64,000 nucleotides of DNA from Candidatus Poribacteria bacterium (GTDB taxonomy: Bacteria > Poribacteria > WGA-4E > WGA-3G): the NCBI GenBank assembly GCA_964291315.2, contig OZ219753.1:2848001-2912000 (forward strand). The letters run 5' to 3'. Below are positions 38,226 to 55,576 of this stretch, piece by piece (within the stretch, counting starts at the first letter, position 1; each line of letters starts with the position of its first letter). The translations under genes and the position numbers were made by a program. Below the pieces are notes generated by a model. It worked only from the letters and a program-made list of their open reading frames with translations, did no database searches and was not told the DNA's origin.

Positions 38226-40064
38226 ATGAAATCAGAACAATTCGGTAATATGTCTCGTGAATTGTGGCAATCTCTGCCGAATGTGCCGGGGGTTTATCTG
38301 ATGAAAGCCTCGGATGGTACGGTTCTCTATGTTGGGAAAGCCGTCCGTTTGCGTGCTCGTGTCCGTTCGTATTTTCGAGAGAAATCCGTGCATCCGTTAA
38401 CCTTGCAGATGATGCGGTATGTCACAGAGATCGATTACACTGTCACGGAGACTGAAGTTGAGGCTCTCATTTTAGAGAATAATCTCATTAAGGCGCATCA
38501 GCCTCGTTACAACGTAAAACTCAAGGATGATAAGCGCTACCCCTATTTGCAGGTAACCGTCAATGAACCGTTTCCACGTATCCGGATTACTCGCAGAGCT
38601 GAAAACGACGGGACCCGGTATTTTGGTCCATTCGTTCATGTGCGCGCGATCCGGCAGACCCTCAAACAGTTGACTAAGCTATTTCCTATTCGTACCTGCG
38701 CGCTGCCCCTCAAGGACATCGGTAATAGGTATCGGGTCTGCTTAGACTACCACATTGGACGTTGTCCTGGTCCGTGTGCCGATAAAATACCTGTCTCAGA
38801 TTACGGGCAGATAGTTCGGAAGGTGTGTCAGTTTTTAAGTGGAAATACAGATGGTGTTGTTAAGGAGTTGACCGCGCAAATGGAGGCTGCTGCTGCGGCT
38901 CTGAACTTTGAAACAGCGGCGAAATATCGGGATACACTTAAAGCCATTCAACAGGCGATTACGACACAGAGTTTGGATACTGTTTCCGGGGCGGATGAGG
39001 ATATTATCGGCATTGCTGCTCGCGCTGACATTGCATGTGTGCAGCTCCTACGGGTGCGAGATGGCAAACTTCTTGAACGTGAGCACTACTATCTCAACGA
39101 TGCGGATCCAGGGGCTCTAGCGGCGGCGTTAAATGCGTTTGTACCGCAATATTATCAGGACGCTGTTTTCGTTCCCAAAGCTGTTGTTTTACCGATGCCT
39201 ATTGAAGGAGCAGAACTGATTGAAGATTGGCTTAGCGAAAAGCGGGGGAACCGTGTTGGGCTGCATGTGCCACGGGCGGGTCGGCTGAGAAAATTACAGG
39301 TTTTGGCCTCAAAAAATGCGGAGGTTCTTCTGACTCAACGGGAGCAGAACGTGGTTTATAGCGGTGGGATTGATCCTGCCCTCGTTGAACTTCGGGAGCT
39401 GATGGGGTTGGATCGGCCCGTTAGACGAATTGAGGCGTTTGATATTTCAAATCTTGGCGATAGGTTCGCTGTGGGTTCGATGGTGGTTCTGGAAGATGGA
39501 AAACCGGCGTCATCGGAGTATCGCCGATTTAAGATCCGGACGGTTGCAGGCCAGAACGATTTCGCGATGATGCAAGAGGTTATCACCCGGCGCTTCCGGC
39601 GTGCGGTTGCCAATGATGAAAAGTTTAACAAACTGCCGGACTTAATCTTAATCGACGGTGGGAAGGGGCAGCTGAGTGCGGCGCAGAAAGCGATGCAGAC
39701 TTTCGCTACTGCTCGTCTGCCTGATATTCCGATGATTGCCCTTGCGAAGCGGGTCGAAGAGATTTTTGTTCCTGATAAGCCGGTGTCGATTGTGTTGCGG
39801 AAAGATAACCCAACTCTACACCTGATTCAGCGGTTACGAGATGAGGCGCACCGATTTGCGGTTACCTATCACCGGCGACTCCGACAGAAGTCGCTGAGTG
39901 CATCCGTGCTTGACGAGATTCCGAATCTCGGTCCGAAGCGGAAGCAGGCGCTGCTCAAGCGTTTTGGTTCGATAGAGGCGATTCGGGAGGCAAGCTTGGA
40001 CAGCTTGCTCTCTGTGAAAGGCATACCTCGCGGCGTTGCGGAGAATATCCGAAAGCATCTGTGA
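38226..40064 (+). CDS. uvrC: Excinuclease ABC subunit C
   Basis: GIY-YIG 'PGVYLM...LYVGKA', 'LKDDKRYPY', 'EAFDISN', 'IDGGKGQL', 'RDEAHRFA', HhH. Confidence 0.97.
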   Translation: MKSEQFGNMSRELWQSLPNVPGVYLMKASDGTVLYVGKAVRLRARVRSYFREKSVHPLTLQMMRYVTEIDYTVTETEVEALILENNLIKAHQPRYNVKLKDDKRYPYLQVTVNEPFPRIRITRRAENDGTRYFGPFVHVRAIRQTLKQLTKLFPIRTCALPLKDIGNRYRVCLDYHIGRCPGPCADKIPVSDYGQIVRKVCQFLSGNTDGVVKELTAQMEAAAAALNFETAAKYRDTLKAIQQAITTQSLDTVSGADEDIIGIAARADIACVQLLRVRDGKLLEREHYYLNDADPGALAAALNAFVPQYYQDAVFVPKAVVLPMPIEGAELIEDWLSEKRGNRVGLHVPRAGRLRKLQVLASKNAEVLLTQREQNVVYSGGIDPALVELRELMGLDRPVRRIEAFDISNLGDRFAVGSMVVLEDGKPASSEYRRFKIRTVAGQNDFAMMQEVITRRFRRAVANDEKFNKLPDLILIDGGKGQLSAAQKAMQTFATARLPDIPMIALAKRVEEIFVPDKPVSIVLRKDNPTLHLIQRLRDEAHRFAVTYHRRLRQKSLSASVLDEIPNLGPKRKQALLKRFGSIEAIREASLDSLLSVKGIPRGVAENIRKHL

Positions 40065-40187
40065 ACAGTCTTGAAGTTTTCTCCCGGGCTGCACGAATTT
40101 GCACAATTTATTTTACCGGCTGCCCCAGTTTGTGCATGAACAACGCTGATATCGGCAAATTATTGCACTTGTCTAGCCTTTCTAGAT

Positions 40188-40202
40188 TGGCACGCTATTT
40201 GC
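40188..40202 (+). promoter_or_regulatory. Sigma54 (RpoN) -24/-12 promoter
   Basis: TGGCACG-ctat-TTGC is an exact fit to TGGCACG-N4-TTGC. (T/G)GCA-N6-TGCA sites lie upstream at 40090-40103 and 40154-40167. Confidence 0.8.
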
Positions 40203-40213
40203 TATGTTGTGAA

Positions 40214-40297
40214 TGTCAAAGCTGGCGCGGCTGCGAAACCCTCAAAGGGGGATCAGTCTTAATTTTAGGTATTTTAAGTACTAACGCGAGCTTGATA
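40214..40297 (+). ncRNA. Putative structured small RNA or leader of unknown family
   Basis: Begins at the expected sigma54 +1. The 5' arm tgtcaaagctggcgcg can pair with the 3' arm cgcgagcttgata and encloses two hairpins (folded by eye). Confidence 0.45.
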
Positions 40298-40370
40298 ATT
40301 ATGTTGAGTCGGTTGAGGTATGCAGTTACGAAGACAGAAACGCTCTTTTTGAAAAGGAGATTTTACAAAC

Positions 40371-41402
40371 ATGAGAACCATGAAGCGAAGATATCTCTAT
40401 ACTATAGGCACCCTCGCTGTCGTCGTTACCCTCGGTCTCATCGGCTGGCGCCTGCTGCAACCCACGGCGCCGCAACCGCGTGTCGTATACAAACCTGCCC
40501 ACACCGAAACGGGCGCGATCCCGACATCGCAACGGACAGACGACCCGGCGACGGCGGCGGCCCCCACAGAAACGCAGACCCCCACGGACAGACAGCAAGC
40601 CGATCGCGATCAAGCCATCGAGAGAGCCATGAAGACCCCCGCGTATCGCGAATATGAGAGAAAGCAACGCGAAAAGATCCCCGGATTTAATATGAGTTTA
40701 TGGTGGGACTTTCTTGAATCGCAAGGCATCCCCCACTCGGGGCGTCTGCTCCAGGAAACCTACTTCCGTGAAGAATTCCCGACCGGTGAATACGAGGATT
40801 ATGAGCCGATGATGCGCAAACGACTCGCGGCACTCTTCGTGGCAGCTGATCTCCCGAAAGAACCTTCGCACATCTCCGCGGTGCGCCTCGATACCATCCA
40901 AGTCGTCAGCCAATTCCGAAATGAATCTTGGGCAAATACGATCTGGATGCGTGGATATTTCAATGGATACGATGGCGATATGGCCTGGGCGAACGAGATC
41001 CGGAATAATGCCGCCAGCATCCTCGCCGCGCCCGCCGACACCGCAAGCGACACGGAGACACTGGCAACGCACGCCACGTCTACGACCCGTCCGACGGGAT
41101 CAGCCGAAACACCCGTGGAAACGCAACCGACGCGCGACGATGCCCAAACCGCTTTTGAAACGTTAGATCTGGCACTTCCAGCGTTGGAACAGCAACTCAC
41201 CGAACACGGGGTGCCAGAAATATCCAATGTCCTCAACGCGTCGGCGTTGAAAACTGAGATGAGTCAACGTTTTTCACCCGATCGTTTCAACACAGCATTG
41301 CAGACCTTGAACCGATATGGACCCGAAGCCGGACTCCGCAGGCTCAAGGCATCCGACCCCGAGGTGGCTACATACCTCGAAACGCACCTCAAACAACAAT
41401 AG
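40371..41402 (+). CDS. Hypothetical membrane-anchored or secreted protein
   Basis: AAGGAG RBS, N-terminal TM, T/P/A-rich linkers, C-terminal 'YGPEAGLRRLKASDPEV'. Confidence 0.75.
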   Translation: MRTMKRRYLYTIGTLAVVVTLGLIGWRLLQPTAPQPRVVYKPAHTETGAIPTSQRTDDPATAAAPTETQTPTDRQQADRDQAIERAMKTPAYREYERKQREKIPGFNMSLWWDFLESQGIPHSGRLLQETYFREEFPTGEYEDYEPMMRKRLAALFVAADLPKEPSHISAVRLDTIQVVSQFRNESWANTIWMRGYFNGYDGDMAWANEIRNNAASILAAPADTASDTETLATHATSTTRPTGSAETPVETQPTRDDAQTAFETLDLALPALEQQLTEHGVPEISNVLNASALKTEMSQRFSPDRFNTALQTLNRYGPEAGLRRLKASDPEVATYLETHLKQQ

Positions 41403-41415
41403 GAGACCCCAGAAA

Positions 41416-42258
41416 ATGTCAGATAAACACCGCTCCTACACCGCTTATCTCAATGCTGCCCTCTGTCTACTCATTTGGATCCCCGGGTTCGCCGTGGCAA
41501 GCGATCTCAAGATATACACGCACGAGAAGAGAGACCCCACGCCGCTTGAGAAAACCTACTTCGAAACACTGAAAAAGCAGTTCCCCGGCGAGGTGCTCGA
41601 TGCGAACTTAGAAACGCTACACCTGCTTTCCGATAGTGAGGAATATGTTCAATTTCTCACAGAAAAGTACCCCGAACATGCACCCTTTACAACCTTCCAA
41701 GGGTTCTTTTACACCGTGCTGCCCCCGAAAACACGCTACTTCCCCTTCTTCAAGCAACAATTCGGGGTCGAAAAAATCGAAGAGATAGACACCGATGAAC
41801 TGTTCCTCGCACATGCCTATGCGTCAAGCAGCTGGGTCACTCGGGGCTATAACCGGGGCGGGGATAAATTTCCCGTTCCCACCCGTTTCGGTATCCAACT
41901 CCTGATCACGACACCCCAGGGCAGAGAAATGCTGGAACGGCGCCTCGGTATTGAGCGACATCGGAAAACCGACATAGACGACATGGGCCGCATCCTTCGC
42001 ACTTTCGAAACGCTGCTCCAATTAGGTGGGAGACAACTCGAAGAGGATGTCCGCTGGATAAAAACCCTTTTTGAAGAGCATGGTCCCTCTGAAGGGATGC
42101 TCTGGTTAGCCGTTCAAGACCCGCGGCTCCTCGAGCTTATCCTCTACACCTTTTCAACCGATAAAACGTTTCTAAAATCTGTTTTTGACCCGCTTGAGAT
42201 GTACCTTGACAGACCACGATCCAAACGCCGCTCCCCAGAAAAGCCGAACGCAAACTGA
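41416..42258 (+). CDS. Hypothetical secreted protein
   Basis: AGGAG RBS overlaps the upstream stop, signal-peptide-like N-terminus, C-terminal 'HGPSEGMLWLAVQDPRL'. Confidence 0.75.
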   Translation: MSDKHRSYTAYLNAALCLLIWIPGFAVASDLKIYTHEKRDPTPLEKTYFETLKKQFPGEVLDANLETLHLLSDSEEYVQFLTEKYPEHAPFTTFQGFFYTVLPPKTRYFPFFKQQFGVEKIEEIDTDELFLAHAYASSSWVTRGYNRGGDKFPVPTRFGIQLLITTPQGREMLERRLGIERHRKTDIDDMGRILRTFETLLQLGGRQLEEDVRWIKTLFEEHGPSEGMLWLAVQDPRLLELILYTFSTDKTFLKSVFDPLEMYLDRPRSKRRSPEKPNAN

Positions 42259-42438
42259 CACCCGAAAGAAGATTGCGACCGGTGTCGTTGTATCTGAGAG
42301 AAGAGGGGAACAATTTTCGCGCGAGCTTGATAATTATTGGGTTCACCTTTAGAATAAAGAGAAACGCGAGTACACCGTAATAGATTTTGCTTACAAGAGA
42401 AGAGCAGAAGCGGTGTACAAGTTCATTGCACAAACTAA

Positions 42439-42475
42439 GAGGGTTAGGGGACAGAAGAATCGCCCCACCCTTTTT
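42439..42475 (+). terminator. Putative intrinsic terminator
   Basis: agggt-tagggg ... cccc-accct stem followed by a T run. Confidence 0.5.
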
Positions 42476-42507
42476 CCAAACTCACGTTAAGTACTACAAA
42501 ATAGAAA

Positions 42508-45120
42508 ATGCAAGAAAGAAACATCAAGATAGCGGCCGTCTTAATCATCGTTTTGAGTGTTGCCGCGTTGCACATAAAACTCTATCGGTTTTCCGAAGTG
42601 ACACACGATGGGGCGTTACAGGTGTTGGTCTGCTTAGGTCGTGTTGTTGCTATAGATACAAGTGAGGAAGCGGACCAGGTACTGTCTTTCCGAATTATTT
42701 CTGGACAGTTTCGCGGTAAAACGGTTAAAGTGAACAATGTTTGGACGGGTCGCGCCTTTGGGGACCGCGTGCTTCGGAAGAATGATGTATTATTTCTGGA
42801 TATTCCGCTCCGTGATCCGGCAAATCCGAGGGTTGATACTGTTTCACTGCGGGAATATTTCCGCACGCCGTTTTTACTTTATCTTGCAGGGGCATTGGGT
42901 ATTCTGATGATACTTGTTGCTGGTATGAAGGGGGTTCGTGCTATTTTAACCCTCTTTGTTACTTCGCTGACTGTGCTGTATGTGCTGGTACCACTCACTG
43001 TTGCGGGTTACAATCCGATTGCGGTTGCCCTCTTGATTGCTGCCTTTCTGACGTTTGCGACTTTTCTTCTCATTACGGGGCTTAGTTTCAAATTGATCTC
43101 GGGTGTACTTGGCACTCTTGGTGGTTTAGCCGCTGTTGGAGTCTTATCTGTTTTAAGTCAACAGGCGATGGCATTGACTGGATTGGCCCAAGAGTTTGGT
43201 TTTTTGGAACTCGGTATTGCGTTGTGGCGGACATCTGCTTCACACGGTTGGAATTTTACGGGGATTCTTTCTGCGGGCATCATCTTAGGTGCTGTTGGGG
43301 CGATGATGGACGTGAGCATGTCTATTTCTTCAAGTGTGCATGAAGTCAAGCAGGTGAATCCGAACATCACGGTGCGTCAAGCGATCCGCGCTGGATTGAA
43401 TGTCGGTCGCGACATTATGGGGACGATGGCAGATACCCTCATTTTTGCGTATCTTGGTGCGCACATGATGACGATGCTTCTGCCGCGCATTGAGTTTCCG
43501 GAAGTGGGTATCCTCTATCCTTTCTTACGGCTGGTTAACGATGAAGCGACTGCAGTTGCGATTATTCAAGCGGTTGTCGGTACGATCGGCTTGGTACTCA
43601 CTGTCCCGATTGCTGCGGGTATTGCGGGTTTCCTGACGCAATACACGAAGGTTGACACATCCGAGATTCATGAGGATTTGCCCTCGGAAGAAGAATTAGA
43701 GGAGCTTTTCCGTGCTGATCCACCTCGCAGCAAGGCTCGAATCGCTGTGCCTATCGCTATGGCAGTTATCCTAACTGCGACAGTCTTTGTTTATTATCGC
43801 ACGCATGAGCTCTCTGCAACGATCTCTGAGCAGCGTGATGCTCAAGGAAAGCCGATCAATACGTCAGAATATGCAAAGGGCAAGGTGATTCGACTGCTTG
43901 AATCGAACGGTAATTTCCTTTTTGATATTGACAGTCGTGCTGTGAGCGAGTTGGATGCTGGTATCGTGCCAGAGGTTTTGCGTGCGGAATTCAAACGTCA
44001 TGATATTCTATTTTCTGATGCGGTAAAGGTATCGGTTAAACCGTGGAAGGACAGTCGTTGGTTGCTCTCAGATGAGACGTACGAGCAGACCTATAGTGTC
44101 CGAGCCCTGGAAGAATCGGGGAAAAGCGTCCTCAAAGTTTACGAGTCGAAGAGCGAGCATCATATTCTTGAGGTCGAGATGCTGAGTGGGATATATAAAG
44201 GTAGACGGTTGGTGTTACGGAACATTGTGAATCACAATATGCCGTTGTTGAGCATTCCTGCGGAGCCCGGGGACGTTATTCTCTGTCGTGTCGCGGGAGA
44301 GCCGGAGCAGATTGGGCTTGTGAACATCGTTCAAGATTACAGCAGAGACCGGTTCCTAATTTGGATGGTAGGAGGGATGCTTCTCCTGATTATCTTTGTT
44401 GGTAGGATTGAGGGGATTCGGACGGCTTGTGCGATGTTAATTTCTGCCCTGGTGATTTACTTTTTCATGTTGCCGCTCATCTCGGAGGGAGCAAATGCGG
44501 TGTTCATTGTAACGCTGACTTCCGGTGTTGTGGCCTTTGTGTCTCTGGTGTTTGTTATTGGCCCGAGTCGGAAGACGTTTTCAGCGGTGCTTGGAACGAT
44601 GGGTGGGATTTTGGTTGCGGGTTTAATCGTCCTACTTGCACAGCAGCATCTCCATTTTTCAGGGTTGGAGAACGCGATCTCGGCTGATATTGTGGAGGCG
44701 ACCCGTACACCGCCGTTCGATTTTGTGCAAATCCTTTTGGCTGGGATGCTAATGGGGGTTTTAGGGGTTGCTGTTGACGGGGCAATTGAGGTGGCATCTA
44801 GCATGGAAGAGATTCGAAAAGCGAACCCGAAGATGCCGACGTGGCGATTGATTGCCTCGGGTCTTAACGTCGGGACGGACATTCTGGGCACGATGGTGAA
44901 TACGTTGGTTTTCGCCTATCTGGGTGTGGAGTTGCTTTTGGTTGTTACCGTTACAGCGCCGAATCTGGATTTTTTCAAATCCCCGCCGGTTCAGCTGCTG
45001 AGTATTGGTGTTGTATCTGCGGAGATCGTCCGGCTGCTTGCCGGAACACTCGGGCTTGTCTTGGCGATACCTATTACCGCCATGATTTGTGCGTTCTGGA
45101 ATCCAAAACAGGGGACGTAA
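42508..45120 (+). CDS. Tandem YibE/F family membrane protein with an inserted soluble domain
   Basis: Two copies of 'GAxxD...SIxSS...GLNVGxDIxGTMxxTLxFAYLG...GTxGLVLxxPI'. Confidence 0.85.
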   Translation: MQERNIKIAAVLIIVLSVAALHIKLYRFSEVTHDGALQVLVCLGRVVAIDTSEEADQVLSFRIISGQFRGKTVKVNNVWTGRAFGDRVLRKNDVLFLDIPLRDPANPRVDTVSLREYFRTPFLLYLAGALGILMILVAGMKGVRAILTLFVTSLTVLYVLVPLTVAGYNPIAVALLIAAFLTFATFLLITGLSFKLISGVLGTLGGLAAVGVLSVLSQQAMALTGLAQEFGFLELGIALWRTSASHGWNFTGILSAGIILGAVGAMMDVSMSISSSVHEVKQVNPNITVRQAIRAGLNVGRDIMGTMADTLIFAYLGAHMMTMLLPRIEFPEVGILYPFLRLVNDEATAVAIIQAVVGTIGLVLTVPIAAGIAGFLTQYTKVDTSEIHEDLPSEEELEELFRADPPRSKARIAVPIAMAVILTATVFVYYRTHELSATISEQRDAQGKPINTSEYAKGKVIRLLESNGNFLFDIDSRAVSELDAGIVPEVLRAEFKRHDILFSDAVKVSVKPWKDSRWLLSDETYEQTYSVRALEESGKSVLKVYESKSEHHILEVEMLSGIYKGRRLVLRNIVNHNMPLLSIPAEPGDVILCRVAGEPEQIGLVNIVQDYSRDRFLIWMVGGMLLLIIFVGRIEGIRTACAMLISALVIYFFMLPLISEGANAVFIVTLTSGVVAFVSLVFVIGPSRKTFSAVLGTMGGILVAGLIVLLAQQHLHFSGLENAISADIVEATRTPPFDFVQILLAGMLMGVLGVAVDGAIEVASSMEEIRKANPKMPTWRLIASGLNVGTDILGTMVNTLVFAYLGVELLLVVTVTAPNLDFFKSPPVQLLSIGVVSAEIVRLLAGTLGLVLAIPITAMICAFWNPKQGT

Positions 45121-51962: not shown

Positions 51963-52047
51963 GCCGGAGTGGTGAAATTGGTAGACGCACTGGATTCAAA
52001 ATCCAGCGGGCCCTGGGTCCATGTCGGTTCGAGTCCGACCTCCGGCA
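51963..52047 (+). tRNA. tRNA-Leu(CAA), CCA not encoded
   Basis: GCCGGAG/CTCCGGC acceptor stem, anticodon arm ctgga-ttCAAaa-tccag, long variable arm, GTTCGAG T-loop. Confidence 0.97.
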
Positions 52048-55171: not shown

Positions 55172-55525
55172 GGGGGTGTAAAGGTTTCGACGAAGGTGAA
55201 TGAAATATAGGTTGCATGTCGAGGTCTCCGCAGGCCTCGTTAAACAGGCGGAACACTTATAATTGCTGATCAAGAATTAGCACTAGCTGCTTAATAACGC
55301 GGCTACGCTTGGCAGTCTTGTCGCTCGTCAGGCCTGCTAAAGCGTCGCAATACGGGCTAGTTGCTTGTTTTTTCTCAAGGAACAGGCGGCGAATCTGCTT
55401 TTGAGATAGTCTATTCTGAATCTTGCATGGGAGAGTCTGATAGATGAATCTAAAAACCTGTGATAAGCATGTAGTAGCCTCTATTGAAACGTCTTCGGAC
55501 GCGGGTTCGATTCCCGCCACCTCCA
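55172..55525 (+). ncRNA. ssrA: tmRNA; tag (A)ADQELALAA** at 55265-55297
   Basis: 5' GGGGGTG...TTCGAC, 3' GGGTTCGATTCCCGCCACCTCCA, tag ORF ending LAA-stop-stop, adjacent to smpB. Confidence 0.97.
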
Positions 55526-55576
55526 TTTCATGCGGCTGTCCTGTTTTTGTCCGTAATACATTGATGCTAAAGTGAT

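Follow-up and report, generated by a model that had tools for sequence, protein, structure and literature searches.

A two-gene cassette bounded by IS982-type ends in the leader of a YibE/F-like gene of a Candidatus Poribacteria genome

Between uvrC and a gene for a YibE/F-like membrane protein, a 64,000-nucleotide (nt) stretch of the Candidatus Poribacteria assembly GCA_964291315.2 (contig OZ219753.1, positions 2,848,001 to 2,912,000; hereafter the window, in whose numbering positions are given) holds two open reading frames (ORFs), ORF1 and ORF2. They lie between two exact copies of an 18-bp sequence, CGCGAGCTTGATAATTAT (40285-40302 and 42320-42337, both on the + strand), and at least two matches to this sequence occurred in 0 of 100 shuffles. 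The initial annotation of the locus had reported this direct repeat, which we confirmed, and had read it as the site of an integron-like system that inserts genes at the 3′ end of a structured RNA, behind a sigma54 promoter. The best-supported reading of our analysis is a cassette bounded by the ends of an insertion sequence (IS) and moved in trans, and not a new integron-like system. The mobile unit so defined spans 40284-42487 (2,204 bp) and comprises an outer 19-bp repeat, 2,017 bp of cargo and, as its right end, a 168-bp MITE, or miniature inverted-repeat transposable element (Table 1).

The 18-mer is by no means peculiar to this locus. A genome-wide search (4.40 Mb, four contigs) returned six exact copies and 47 copies at up to two mismatches (reversed control, 0), rising to 71 at up to three mismatches. 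When the copies were aligned with their flanks, the base before them was A, usually within TA-A, and by manual count from the match table TAA lay directly 5′ of 50 of the 71 family matches. Thirty-seven of the 47 matches run on into a conserved body of ~100-180 bp, the far and near ends of which are reverse complements of each other, and ten are 'solo' left ends with no MITE body after them, six of these being copies inside tandem gene arrays. A 19-mer variant, at up to two mismatches, has 46 copies in this species against 0-3 in each of 40 other genus genomes, and has therefore been amplified in this species only, among the genus genomes compared. TATAAT-like flanks 5′ of the copies had initially suggested to us a promoter or 5′ leader, a reading that was dropped in view of the right end, which is the motif's reverse complement, and of the target duplications. 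A solo diverged 18-mer, CGCAACCTTGATAATTAT, stands 87 nt 5′ of each gene in two tandem arrays of genes for proteins of 256-277 amino acids (aa), and this repeat end has been duplicated together with the genes of the arrays.

In the aligned copies, the MITE body consists of tgggttcatctttggataaagagag followed by one to three hairpin modules of the type GCACAGACTGACAGTCTATGCTACAAG, and the terminus, ttttttCAAACTCACGT, is the reverse complement of the element's start. An nhmmer profile of 181 positions, built from 21 complete copies and run on the whole genome, yielded 135 matches (32 full-length of 104-184 bp, the others being left (38), right (23) or internal (42) parts), 134 of which are intergenic on a rough ORF map. 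Full, left-part and right-part matches were co-oriented with the downstream gene in 64 cases and opposed to it in 29; this orientation, together with a TTGATA-17-TAGAAT-like site in the left end, suggests that the MITEs may supply promoters or structured 5′ leaders. The copy at our locus begins with the second 18-mer (42320-42337), its usual first A being replaced by G at 42319, and has a computed RNA fold of -48 kcal/mol (z -3.83). Rfam held no family for the repeat or the MITE, whether the window was searched at the gathering threshold or 39900-42700 and six other copies at E≤10. Elsewhere, minimal palindromes of 45-46 bp, made of two inverted repeats head to head, were observed ~50 bp 5′ of genes of a multi-copy secreted-protein family of ~910 aa.

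The parent of these ends was recognized in related genomes. A stretch of 71 codons from the C-terminal part of a DDE transposase lies in this genome between degenerate repeat copies and, used as a query, matched 37 of 61 genus genomes, at up to 18 places per genome and with many open frames of ~300-320 aa. At the seven loci examined, relatives have an IS of ~1,009-1,025 bp around the transposase gene, with ACGTGAGTTTGATAA as the end that lies upstream of the gene and ACGTGAGTTTGAAAA, given as reverse complement, as the downstream one, and an exact flank duplication of 7-8 bp is present at five of the seven copies. Against NCBIfam NF033520, 'IS982 family transposase', a 298-aa transposase encoded between matching ends in one relative (G062) scored 253.1 bits, with a cut-off of 130; its score against PF13612 was 211 bits. 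Members of the IS982 family measure ~1 kb, encode a DDE enzyme and have inverted repeats with AC at their ends, together with direct repeats whose length varies (PMC7335449). Because the IS in relatives has both matching ends and an IS982 transposase, the 18-mer is identified as positions 2-19 in the left inverted repeat of a MITE derived from IS982, and not as an attachment site. Searches with PF00872 and PF01610 gave no matches, and self-BLAST of the genome revealed no near-identical IS copies. As candidates for an autonomous element, a 910-aa ORF beside palindromic repeat pairs, a multi-copy repeat of 2.6-3.1 kb (C1:164938-168075) and end pairs 750-1,600 bp apart were considered and rejected; what they hold is a secreted protein, a methyltransferase/restriction enzyme and non-coding DNA, the genes being host genes beside or between MITEs.

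The borders of the insert differ from those first proposed. Rather than at the two 18-mers, they lie at 40284 and 42487, just outside the first copy and 150 bp past the second, where a 9-bp duplication flanks them. In comparison with the parent IS, the outer left repeat (40284-40302) agrees with its left end, and the right inverted repeat (42473-42487) with its right end; the extremities of the unit, ACGCGAGCTTGATAA and, as reverse complement, ACGTGAGTTTGGAAA, have the form of IS982 ends, including the 5′-AC. A census found 67 convergent end pairs within 12 kb in the genome, seven of them with an 8-9-bp flank match at no more than one mismatch (shifted control, one). These seven are five MITEs of 104-184 bp, one non-coding element of 618 bp and the 2,204-bp unit (9/9), which is the sole gene carrier among them. 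The absence of a recombinase between the repeats, reported earlier, was borne out: the two ORFs have neither a transposase nor a recombinase domain, and the unit carries passenger genes, the feature that separates a mobile insertion cassette (MIC) from a MITE.

Empty sites, which the initial annotation had proposed to seek, were found in every relative that could be anchored on both sides. The flanks of the locus were matched in 24 of 24 same-genus genomes searched; 21 loci were examined, and both flanks were anchored in 20. In all 20, uvrC and the YibE/F-like gene are adjacent, with a spacer of 187-862 bp that contains neither ORF1, ORF2 nor the 18-mer, and on this comparison the two genes are a lineage-specific insertion. 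In the spacer of one relative (G022), the left flank (40186-40283) aligns to 127-233 and the right flank (42488-42507) to 225-244. These alignments overlap by exactly 9 nt, and 40284-42487 is therefore identified as an insertion with inverted-repeat ends and a 9-bp duplication; of the homologous 9-mer, TAAATCCTA, each of the two relatives checked (G022 and G017) has a single copy. Two identifications we regard as very probable: the repeat as an end of IS982 type, and the insert as a segment delimited by such ends and flanked by a target duplication.

Table 1. Positions and attributes of the features discussed; positions without a prefix are those of the window.
Feature	Position	Strand	Basis or remark
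Left 9-bp target duplication, TAAGTACTA	40275-40283	n/a	Read directly 5′ of A at 40284
Outer left inverted repeat, ACGCGAGCTTGATAATTAT, 19 bp	40284-40302	+	Holds 18-mer copy 1; no MITE body follows (one of the ten solo ends)
Cargo, 2,017 bp	40303-42319	+	ORF1 and ORF2
ORF1, 343 aa; N-terminal membrane anchor, then Pro/Thr-rich linker	40371-41402	+	ORF call
ORF2, 280 aa; signal-peptide-like N-terminus, all-helical (model)	41416-42258	+	ORF call
Complete MITE, 168 bp	42320-42487	+	nhmmer positions 2-181 of 181, E 2.9e-28; aligns with 21 other complete copies
Putative sigma70-like promoter in MITE, TTGATA, 17 nt, TAGAAT	42327-42355	+	10/12 consensus matches
Right inverted repeat, TTTCCAAACTCACGT on + strand, reverse complement ACGTGAGTTTGGAAA	42473-42487	-	Sequence and MITE alignment
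Right 9-bp target duplication, TAAGTACTA	42488-42496	n/a	Directly 3′ of T at 42487
Putative sigma54-type promoter, TTGGCACGCTATTTGCT, GG and GC 12 nt apart	40187-40203	+	Motif read in sequence
uvrC, left neighbour, 612 aa	38226-40064	+	Named from reading of translation; 3′ end 80-85% identical to relatives
YibE/F-like membrane protein gene, 870 aa, two YibE_F domains	42508-45120	+	Pfam PF07907, E 1.2e-119
Cargo unit of G071	L068 585-2476 = G071:C1:4431184-4433075		
Tandem arrays with CGCAACCTTGATAATTAT	G000 C4:1331230-1334905; C4:2368675-2369622		
Minimal palindromes	G000 C4:689192-689237; C1:547951-547996; C4:1161139-1161184; C4:1752204-1752248		

Both cargo genes had been described as orphans coding for exported proteins. 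Two ORFs do lie between the copies, but they are not orphans: relatives of ORF2 occur in 32 of the 41 genus genomes searched, and at least five other pairs of ORF1-like and ORF2-like genes, at 36-44% identity, are present in this genome. The pair comes from an exported-protein gene family expanded in this sponge-symbiont genus. Neither ORF had a significant Pfam or NCBIfam match or a recombinase or transposase domain, and a protein atlas search was also empty; the sole family match, to HTH_62 (E 0.099), reached 13 bits, below the cut-off of 27. Among 65 genus genomes, the closest relatives of ORF2 are 58-59% identical, with none above 59%, and are found in G002 and G077, where they have an in-frame stop and occupy another locus without the repeats; the synteny around them maps to a contig junction in this genome, and no footprint was seen there. 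On ENA contig(s) of 71,094 bp, a wider protein search recovered closer ORF2 relatives, with identities of 92% and 85%. Within this genome the best cargo paralogue is 40% identical, the exception being a 285-bp ORF2-like fragment (C2:118261-118543) with 79% nucleotide identity and no repeats nearby. A donor search with ORF2 in genome and metagenome contig collections returned no related locus, and the exact outer-junction 25-mer had no match in metagenome contigs.

The alignment of 18 ORF2 family sequences contains 38 invariant columns, and the AlphaFold model of ORF2 is confidently all-helical (pLDDT 83.6, pTM 0.76). A Foldseek comparison of this model with the PDB gave no fold match (best E 0.23, TM≤0.18), and the modelled structure may represent an undescribed fold. 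In composition, the insert is set apart from its surroundings, in agreement with the reversed strand composition noted initially: GC skew runs from -0.03 to -0.20 inside the insert, against +0.1 to +0.28 in the flanks. The GC content of the cargo is 54.4%, compared with 47-48% for the genome, and its coding-strand GC skew is -0.13.

Upstream of the unit, the predicted promoter TTGGCACGCTATTTGCT fits the sigma54 consensus. The motif TTGGCATnnTATTTGC(A/T/G) is found in the uvrC-yibE spacers of 20 of 20 relatives and, in 16 of them, 44-186 nt before the start codon. Because it is kept in all 20, we assign the promoter to the YibE/F-like gene, of which it is the native promoter, and not to an RNA gene; the segment 40204-40283 is the leader of the same gene, and the insertion splits this leader 11 nt before the start codon. 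The earlier description of a cassette behind a sigma54 promoter holds as to position, since ORF1 and ORF2 are now 3′ of the promoter on the same strand, but the promoter and leader belong to the YibE/F-like gene, which has been moved 2.2 kb farther off. In this arrangement the cargo would now be read from the sigma54 promoter and, going by its consensus match only, the sigma70-like site in the MITE, which points at the YibE/F-like gene, would drive that gene.

The spacers of some relatives contain a 190-aa ORF, Uma2/DUF820-like on reading of its translation. It lies 3′ of the sigma54 promoter in G009 (locus L041), is truncated in G014 (L045) and lies 5′ of the promoter in G023 (L043), and remnants of its 3′ end persist in the spacers of G008 and G018. 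This ORF has no bounding repeats, and the variable spacer inserts of relatives are without the 18-mer.

The initial annotation had equated the left repeat with the 3′ strand of an RNA-like stem. Folding 40206-40310 to minimum energy does bring out a stem, but the structure is not unusual (z -1.67; an equally good fold was reached by 13 of 200 shuffles), and the stem's 3′ strand is transposon DNA that is not present in relatives. No RNA gene was detected at 40200-40310 by Rfam or ARAGORN. What was taken for the regenerated 3′ end of a structured RNA gene is the inverted repeat of an IS982-derived MITE. The window's only Rfam/ARAGORN RNA genes, a tRNA-Leu(CAA) at 51963-52047 and a tmRNA at 55172-55528, are not near the unit.

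Recombinases of the kind that integrons and RNA-gene islands employ were sought in the whole genome. Tyrosine recombinases (PF00589) had no match in the whole 4.4-Mb assembly, with the control positive in 14 of 14 genomes, and serine recombinases (PF00239) had none in the whole genome. PF00589 was matched in 30 of 30 relatives searched, leaving this genome alone of 31 without a match; most same-genus genomes have exactly one, which is probably a Xer-type enzyme. An integron is defined by IntI with attI, for which the genome offers no PF00589 match, and by attC at the cassette end in arrays, where we find a dispersed MITE after ORF2, in a single unit and no array. An RNA-gene island, in turn, has the 3′ end of a structured RNA duplicated as its repeat and an integrase within it or nearby; the former is absent from 40200-40310 and the latter from the insert and its surroundings. 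Inverted repeats with a 9-bp target duplication are marks of DDE transposition and not of site-specific recombination. With neither recombinase type found in the genome and no RNA gene at the site, site-specific recombination has very little probability, and the integron-like reading finds no support.

Contigs from public sequencing runs offered a view of the locus beyond this assembly. We used Logan contigs of four runs (X2-X5) from one study; such contigs drop rare variants, and their depth is not copy number. The left and right borders of the unit are crossed by contigs in X2, X3 and X5, and because some of these have ~4-6% other letters, the junctions are not an artefact of this assembly alone. 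In the four runs, no contig joins 40283 to 42488, as the empty site would, or spans the circle junction, which says nothing about excision. Contigs with the joints 40302>42320 and 42345>42470 have sides of 21 nt and belong to other MITE copies. The summed contig depth of the cargo (40385-42324) was 7-70 times the flank depth in X2, X3 and X5, with the outer junction at flank depth; the excess derives from short contigs with many differing letters, the window's own allele being at flank depth. A close variant of the ORF1-ORF2 pair seems far commoner than this chromosome region in those samples. In addition, a 77-nt contig at three times the flank depth bridges the junction of cargo and inner repeat, and cargo plus MITE could exist elsewhere in the sampled communities.

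On balance, we consider it probable, with considerable room for doubt, that 40284-42487 is a non-autonomous IS982-family unit that transposed whole. An IS982-family DDE transposase acting in trans would have paired the outer left repeat (40284-40302) with the right repeat of the MITE (42473-42487), and everything between the two ends would have moved in one step. Its target would have been the AT-rich 5′ leader of the YibE/F-like gene, which depends on sigma54, and the 9 bp TAAGTACTA would have been duplicated there. The 18-bp 'direct repeat' would then be two occurrences of the left inverted repeat, one serving as the outer end and the other belonging to the MITE and now internal. Of this account, our data show what the repeat is, which IS it descends from, where the borders lie, that the target is duplicated and that the site is empty in relatives. 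The unit is taken to have moved in trans because it encodes no enzyme of its own. On this the initial annotation was right, as it was in taking the two genes for an insertion, the site being empty in 20 of 20 relatives. Since this assembly holds transposase fragments alone, we infer the transposase in trans, and its source may have been a copy now lost or unassembled. In structure, the unit is like a MIC, or like a composite in which a solo left end is paired with a MITE.

Mobilization in trans receives indirect support from the empty sites in relatives and from a second unit found at two loci in other species. In G071, a 1,892-bp unit with ends of this MITE/IS982 family carries two tandem genes for lipoproteins of ~190 aa, with a 6-bp duplication on its flanks; G042, G001, G013, G010 and others have the corresponding site empty. 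At a different locus, G001 has a copy that is 90% identical (G001:C43:241391-243221). Each end of the G071 unit is doubled, with an outer repeat beside an inner repeat-like end, and the G001 copy has the inner ends only. These two copies constitute a precedent, within the genus, for the movement of whole cargo units with such ends.

Several observations weigh against transposition of the whole unit. The assembly contains no intact IS982 transposase, only six fragments that all score below the cut-off. At 95.2% completeness it is also the smallest in the genus, and DNA may be missing, a caveat that attaches to every absence reported here; the lack of a PF00589 match, for instance, reflects either a real loss or a region missing from the assembly. 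The unit is single-copy in this genome, and no donor site was found. Its 9-bp duplication is one longer than the 7-8 bp of other copies. The inner junction is atypical, with G in place of A before the inner 18-mer and a flank ending in TC and not TA, and both 18-mers at the locus are identical though exact copies make up just 6 of the 47 in the family. The atypical inner junction, the identical 18-mers and a CGCG microhomology fit a duplication during capture better than two independent MITE insertions.

The same features lend most to the strongest alternative, that a MITE inserted first, with the 9-bp duplication, and that the 2,017-bp cargo was later joined inside its left repeat, for example by template switching that re-copied 18 nt, the unit never having transposed whole. 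Such an event would account for a duplicated stretch that is exactly element positions 2-19 in identical copies, for an inner junction with CGCG microhomology and without the terminal A and the usual TA flank, and for there being no known second copy of the whole unit. Against it, no cargo donor is left in the genome beyond the 40% paralogue and the single 285-bp fragment already mentioned. Nor did any contig in the four runs show a plain MITE at the site, the loose end of the joint 40302>42320 being the flank of another MITE copy, and whole cargo units with such ends do move in the genus. We judge this sequence of events unlikely, though it deserves more weight than any other competitor of whole-unit transposition. 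Homologous recombination between dispersed MITE copies, with the repeats as homology patches, could in principle have brought the cargo from another locus or strain, given 135 MITE-related stretches as possible homology and a cargo GC content above that of the genome; we think this very improbable, as the left homology amounts to only 19 bp and a 9-bp duplication of a single-copy target is not made by homologous exchange unless a MITE pre-existed, which would make it a variant of the MITE-first course. Least credible, to the point of being nearly dismissed, is a site-specific recombinase that acts in trans on an 18-mer core and swaps cassettes at an RNA gene 3′ end behind the sigma54 promoter: an exact direct repeat brackets genes with no enzyme inside, and the uvrC-yibE spacer varies between species, some with the Uma2/DUF820 gene, but the genome lacks PF00589 and PF00239 matches, the supposed RNA has no Rfam match and an unremarkable fold, in 20 of 20 relatives the promoter and leader are those of the YibE/F-like gene, the variable inserts of relatives lack the 18-mer, and the true borders are inverted repeats with a target duplication, IS982 ends explaining the 18-mer.

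Whole-unit transposition of an IS-end-bounded cassette also has counterparts in other bacteria. MIC231 of Bacillus cereus is reportedly a mobile insertion cassette with IS231 ends. In PMC3129680, MICs, MITEs and solo inverted repeats are listed among the derivatives of ISs open to activation by a related transposase. The qnrS2 'MICE' of Aeromonas plasmids, in which IS-derived repeats bracket passenger genes without a transposase and are moved in trans, is described in PMC5444012, which also defines the MIC and reports a MITE inside such a cassette. Our unit shares with MICs the IS-derived inverted repeats around passengers without a transposase and, probably, movement in trans by the cognate IS; it differs in its parent, IS982 and not IS231, in having a whole MITE as right end and an internal second left repeat, and in its cargo of symbiont-specific exported proteins in place of a resistance or peptidase gene. 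Closer still is the PluTI unit of Photorhabdus luminescens, a four-gene block with perfect 16-bp direct repeats. These repeats, at first taken for possible sites of recombination, were later assigned to ends of the IS982 family, and composite, aberrant or non-autonomous transposition was proposed (PMC2875022). Both are multi-gene units with short perfect direct repeats from IS982 ends, but the PluTI repeats lie in two decayed IS982 copies, no empty site or target duplication being available, whereas the present unit has a solo repeat and a MITE, defined borders, a duplication and 20 empty sites. Given cassettes bounded by IS ends and moved in trans in these sources (PMC3129680, PMC5444012 and PMC2875022), the system is not an undescribed one.

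A lineage-specific burst of a ~240-bp MITE derived from ISCca4, of the IS982 family, has been reported in Cardinium (PMC9769881). It parallels our family as a burst of short elements with the inverted repeats of an IS982-family parent; in contrast, the Cardinium MITE carries no genes and has an intact parent in its genome, whereas here the transposase survives as fragments only and one derivative holds 2 kb of genes. A composite transposon mobilizes the DNA enclosed by two ends that belong to separate copies of one element. Such transposons and units flanked by MITEs, among them an integron mobilization unit and MITE-flanked integrons, feature in PMC5444012; the present unit likewise draws its ends from separate element copies, but its left copy is 19 bp and it contains no resistance genes or integron. 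With integron cassettes it has in common promoterless genes behind a resident promoter and no enzyme inside, and it departs from them in lacking IntI, an attC-like imperfect palindrome at the cassette end and an array, and in having inverted repeats and a target duplication as borders. A literature search, whose queries did not name this symbiont group, found no paper on such elements in the group.

A more far-reaching proposal, which we put forward as doubtful, would see the 18-nt duplication as the scar of gene capture in a MITE, with IS982 ends, throughout this sponge-symbiont genus, shuttling exported-protein genes into resident leaders and borrowing their promoters, such as that for sigma54, in one system that reshuffles the surface repertoire. 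The likeness would be to the Pack-MULEs and Pack-MITEs of plants, the gene-capture counterpart there. Such a system would unite the two secreted-protein and lipoprotein cargo units with the co-orientation of the MITEs (64 versus 29).

Overall, a documented mechanism replaces the tempting reading of a new integration system, and the locus is a clean case, found in nature, of a cassette derived from IS982, for which borders, duplication, empty sites and parent IS have all been identified, features that PluTI, the closest published case, lacked. Annotators who meet short perfect direct repeats around 'cassettes' should search the whole genome for them before calling them att sites. For the biology of these sponge symbionts, the unit indicates that miniature transposon ends, present in more than 100 copies in one species, can move host-specific secreted-protein genes, and that they can land between a sigma54 promoter and its gene, where they may rewire the expression of both.

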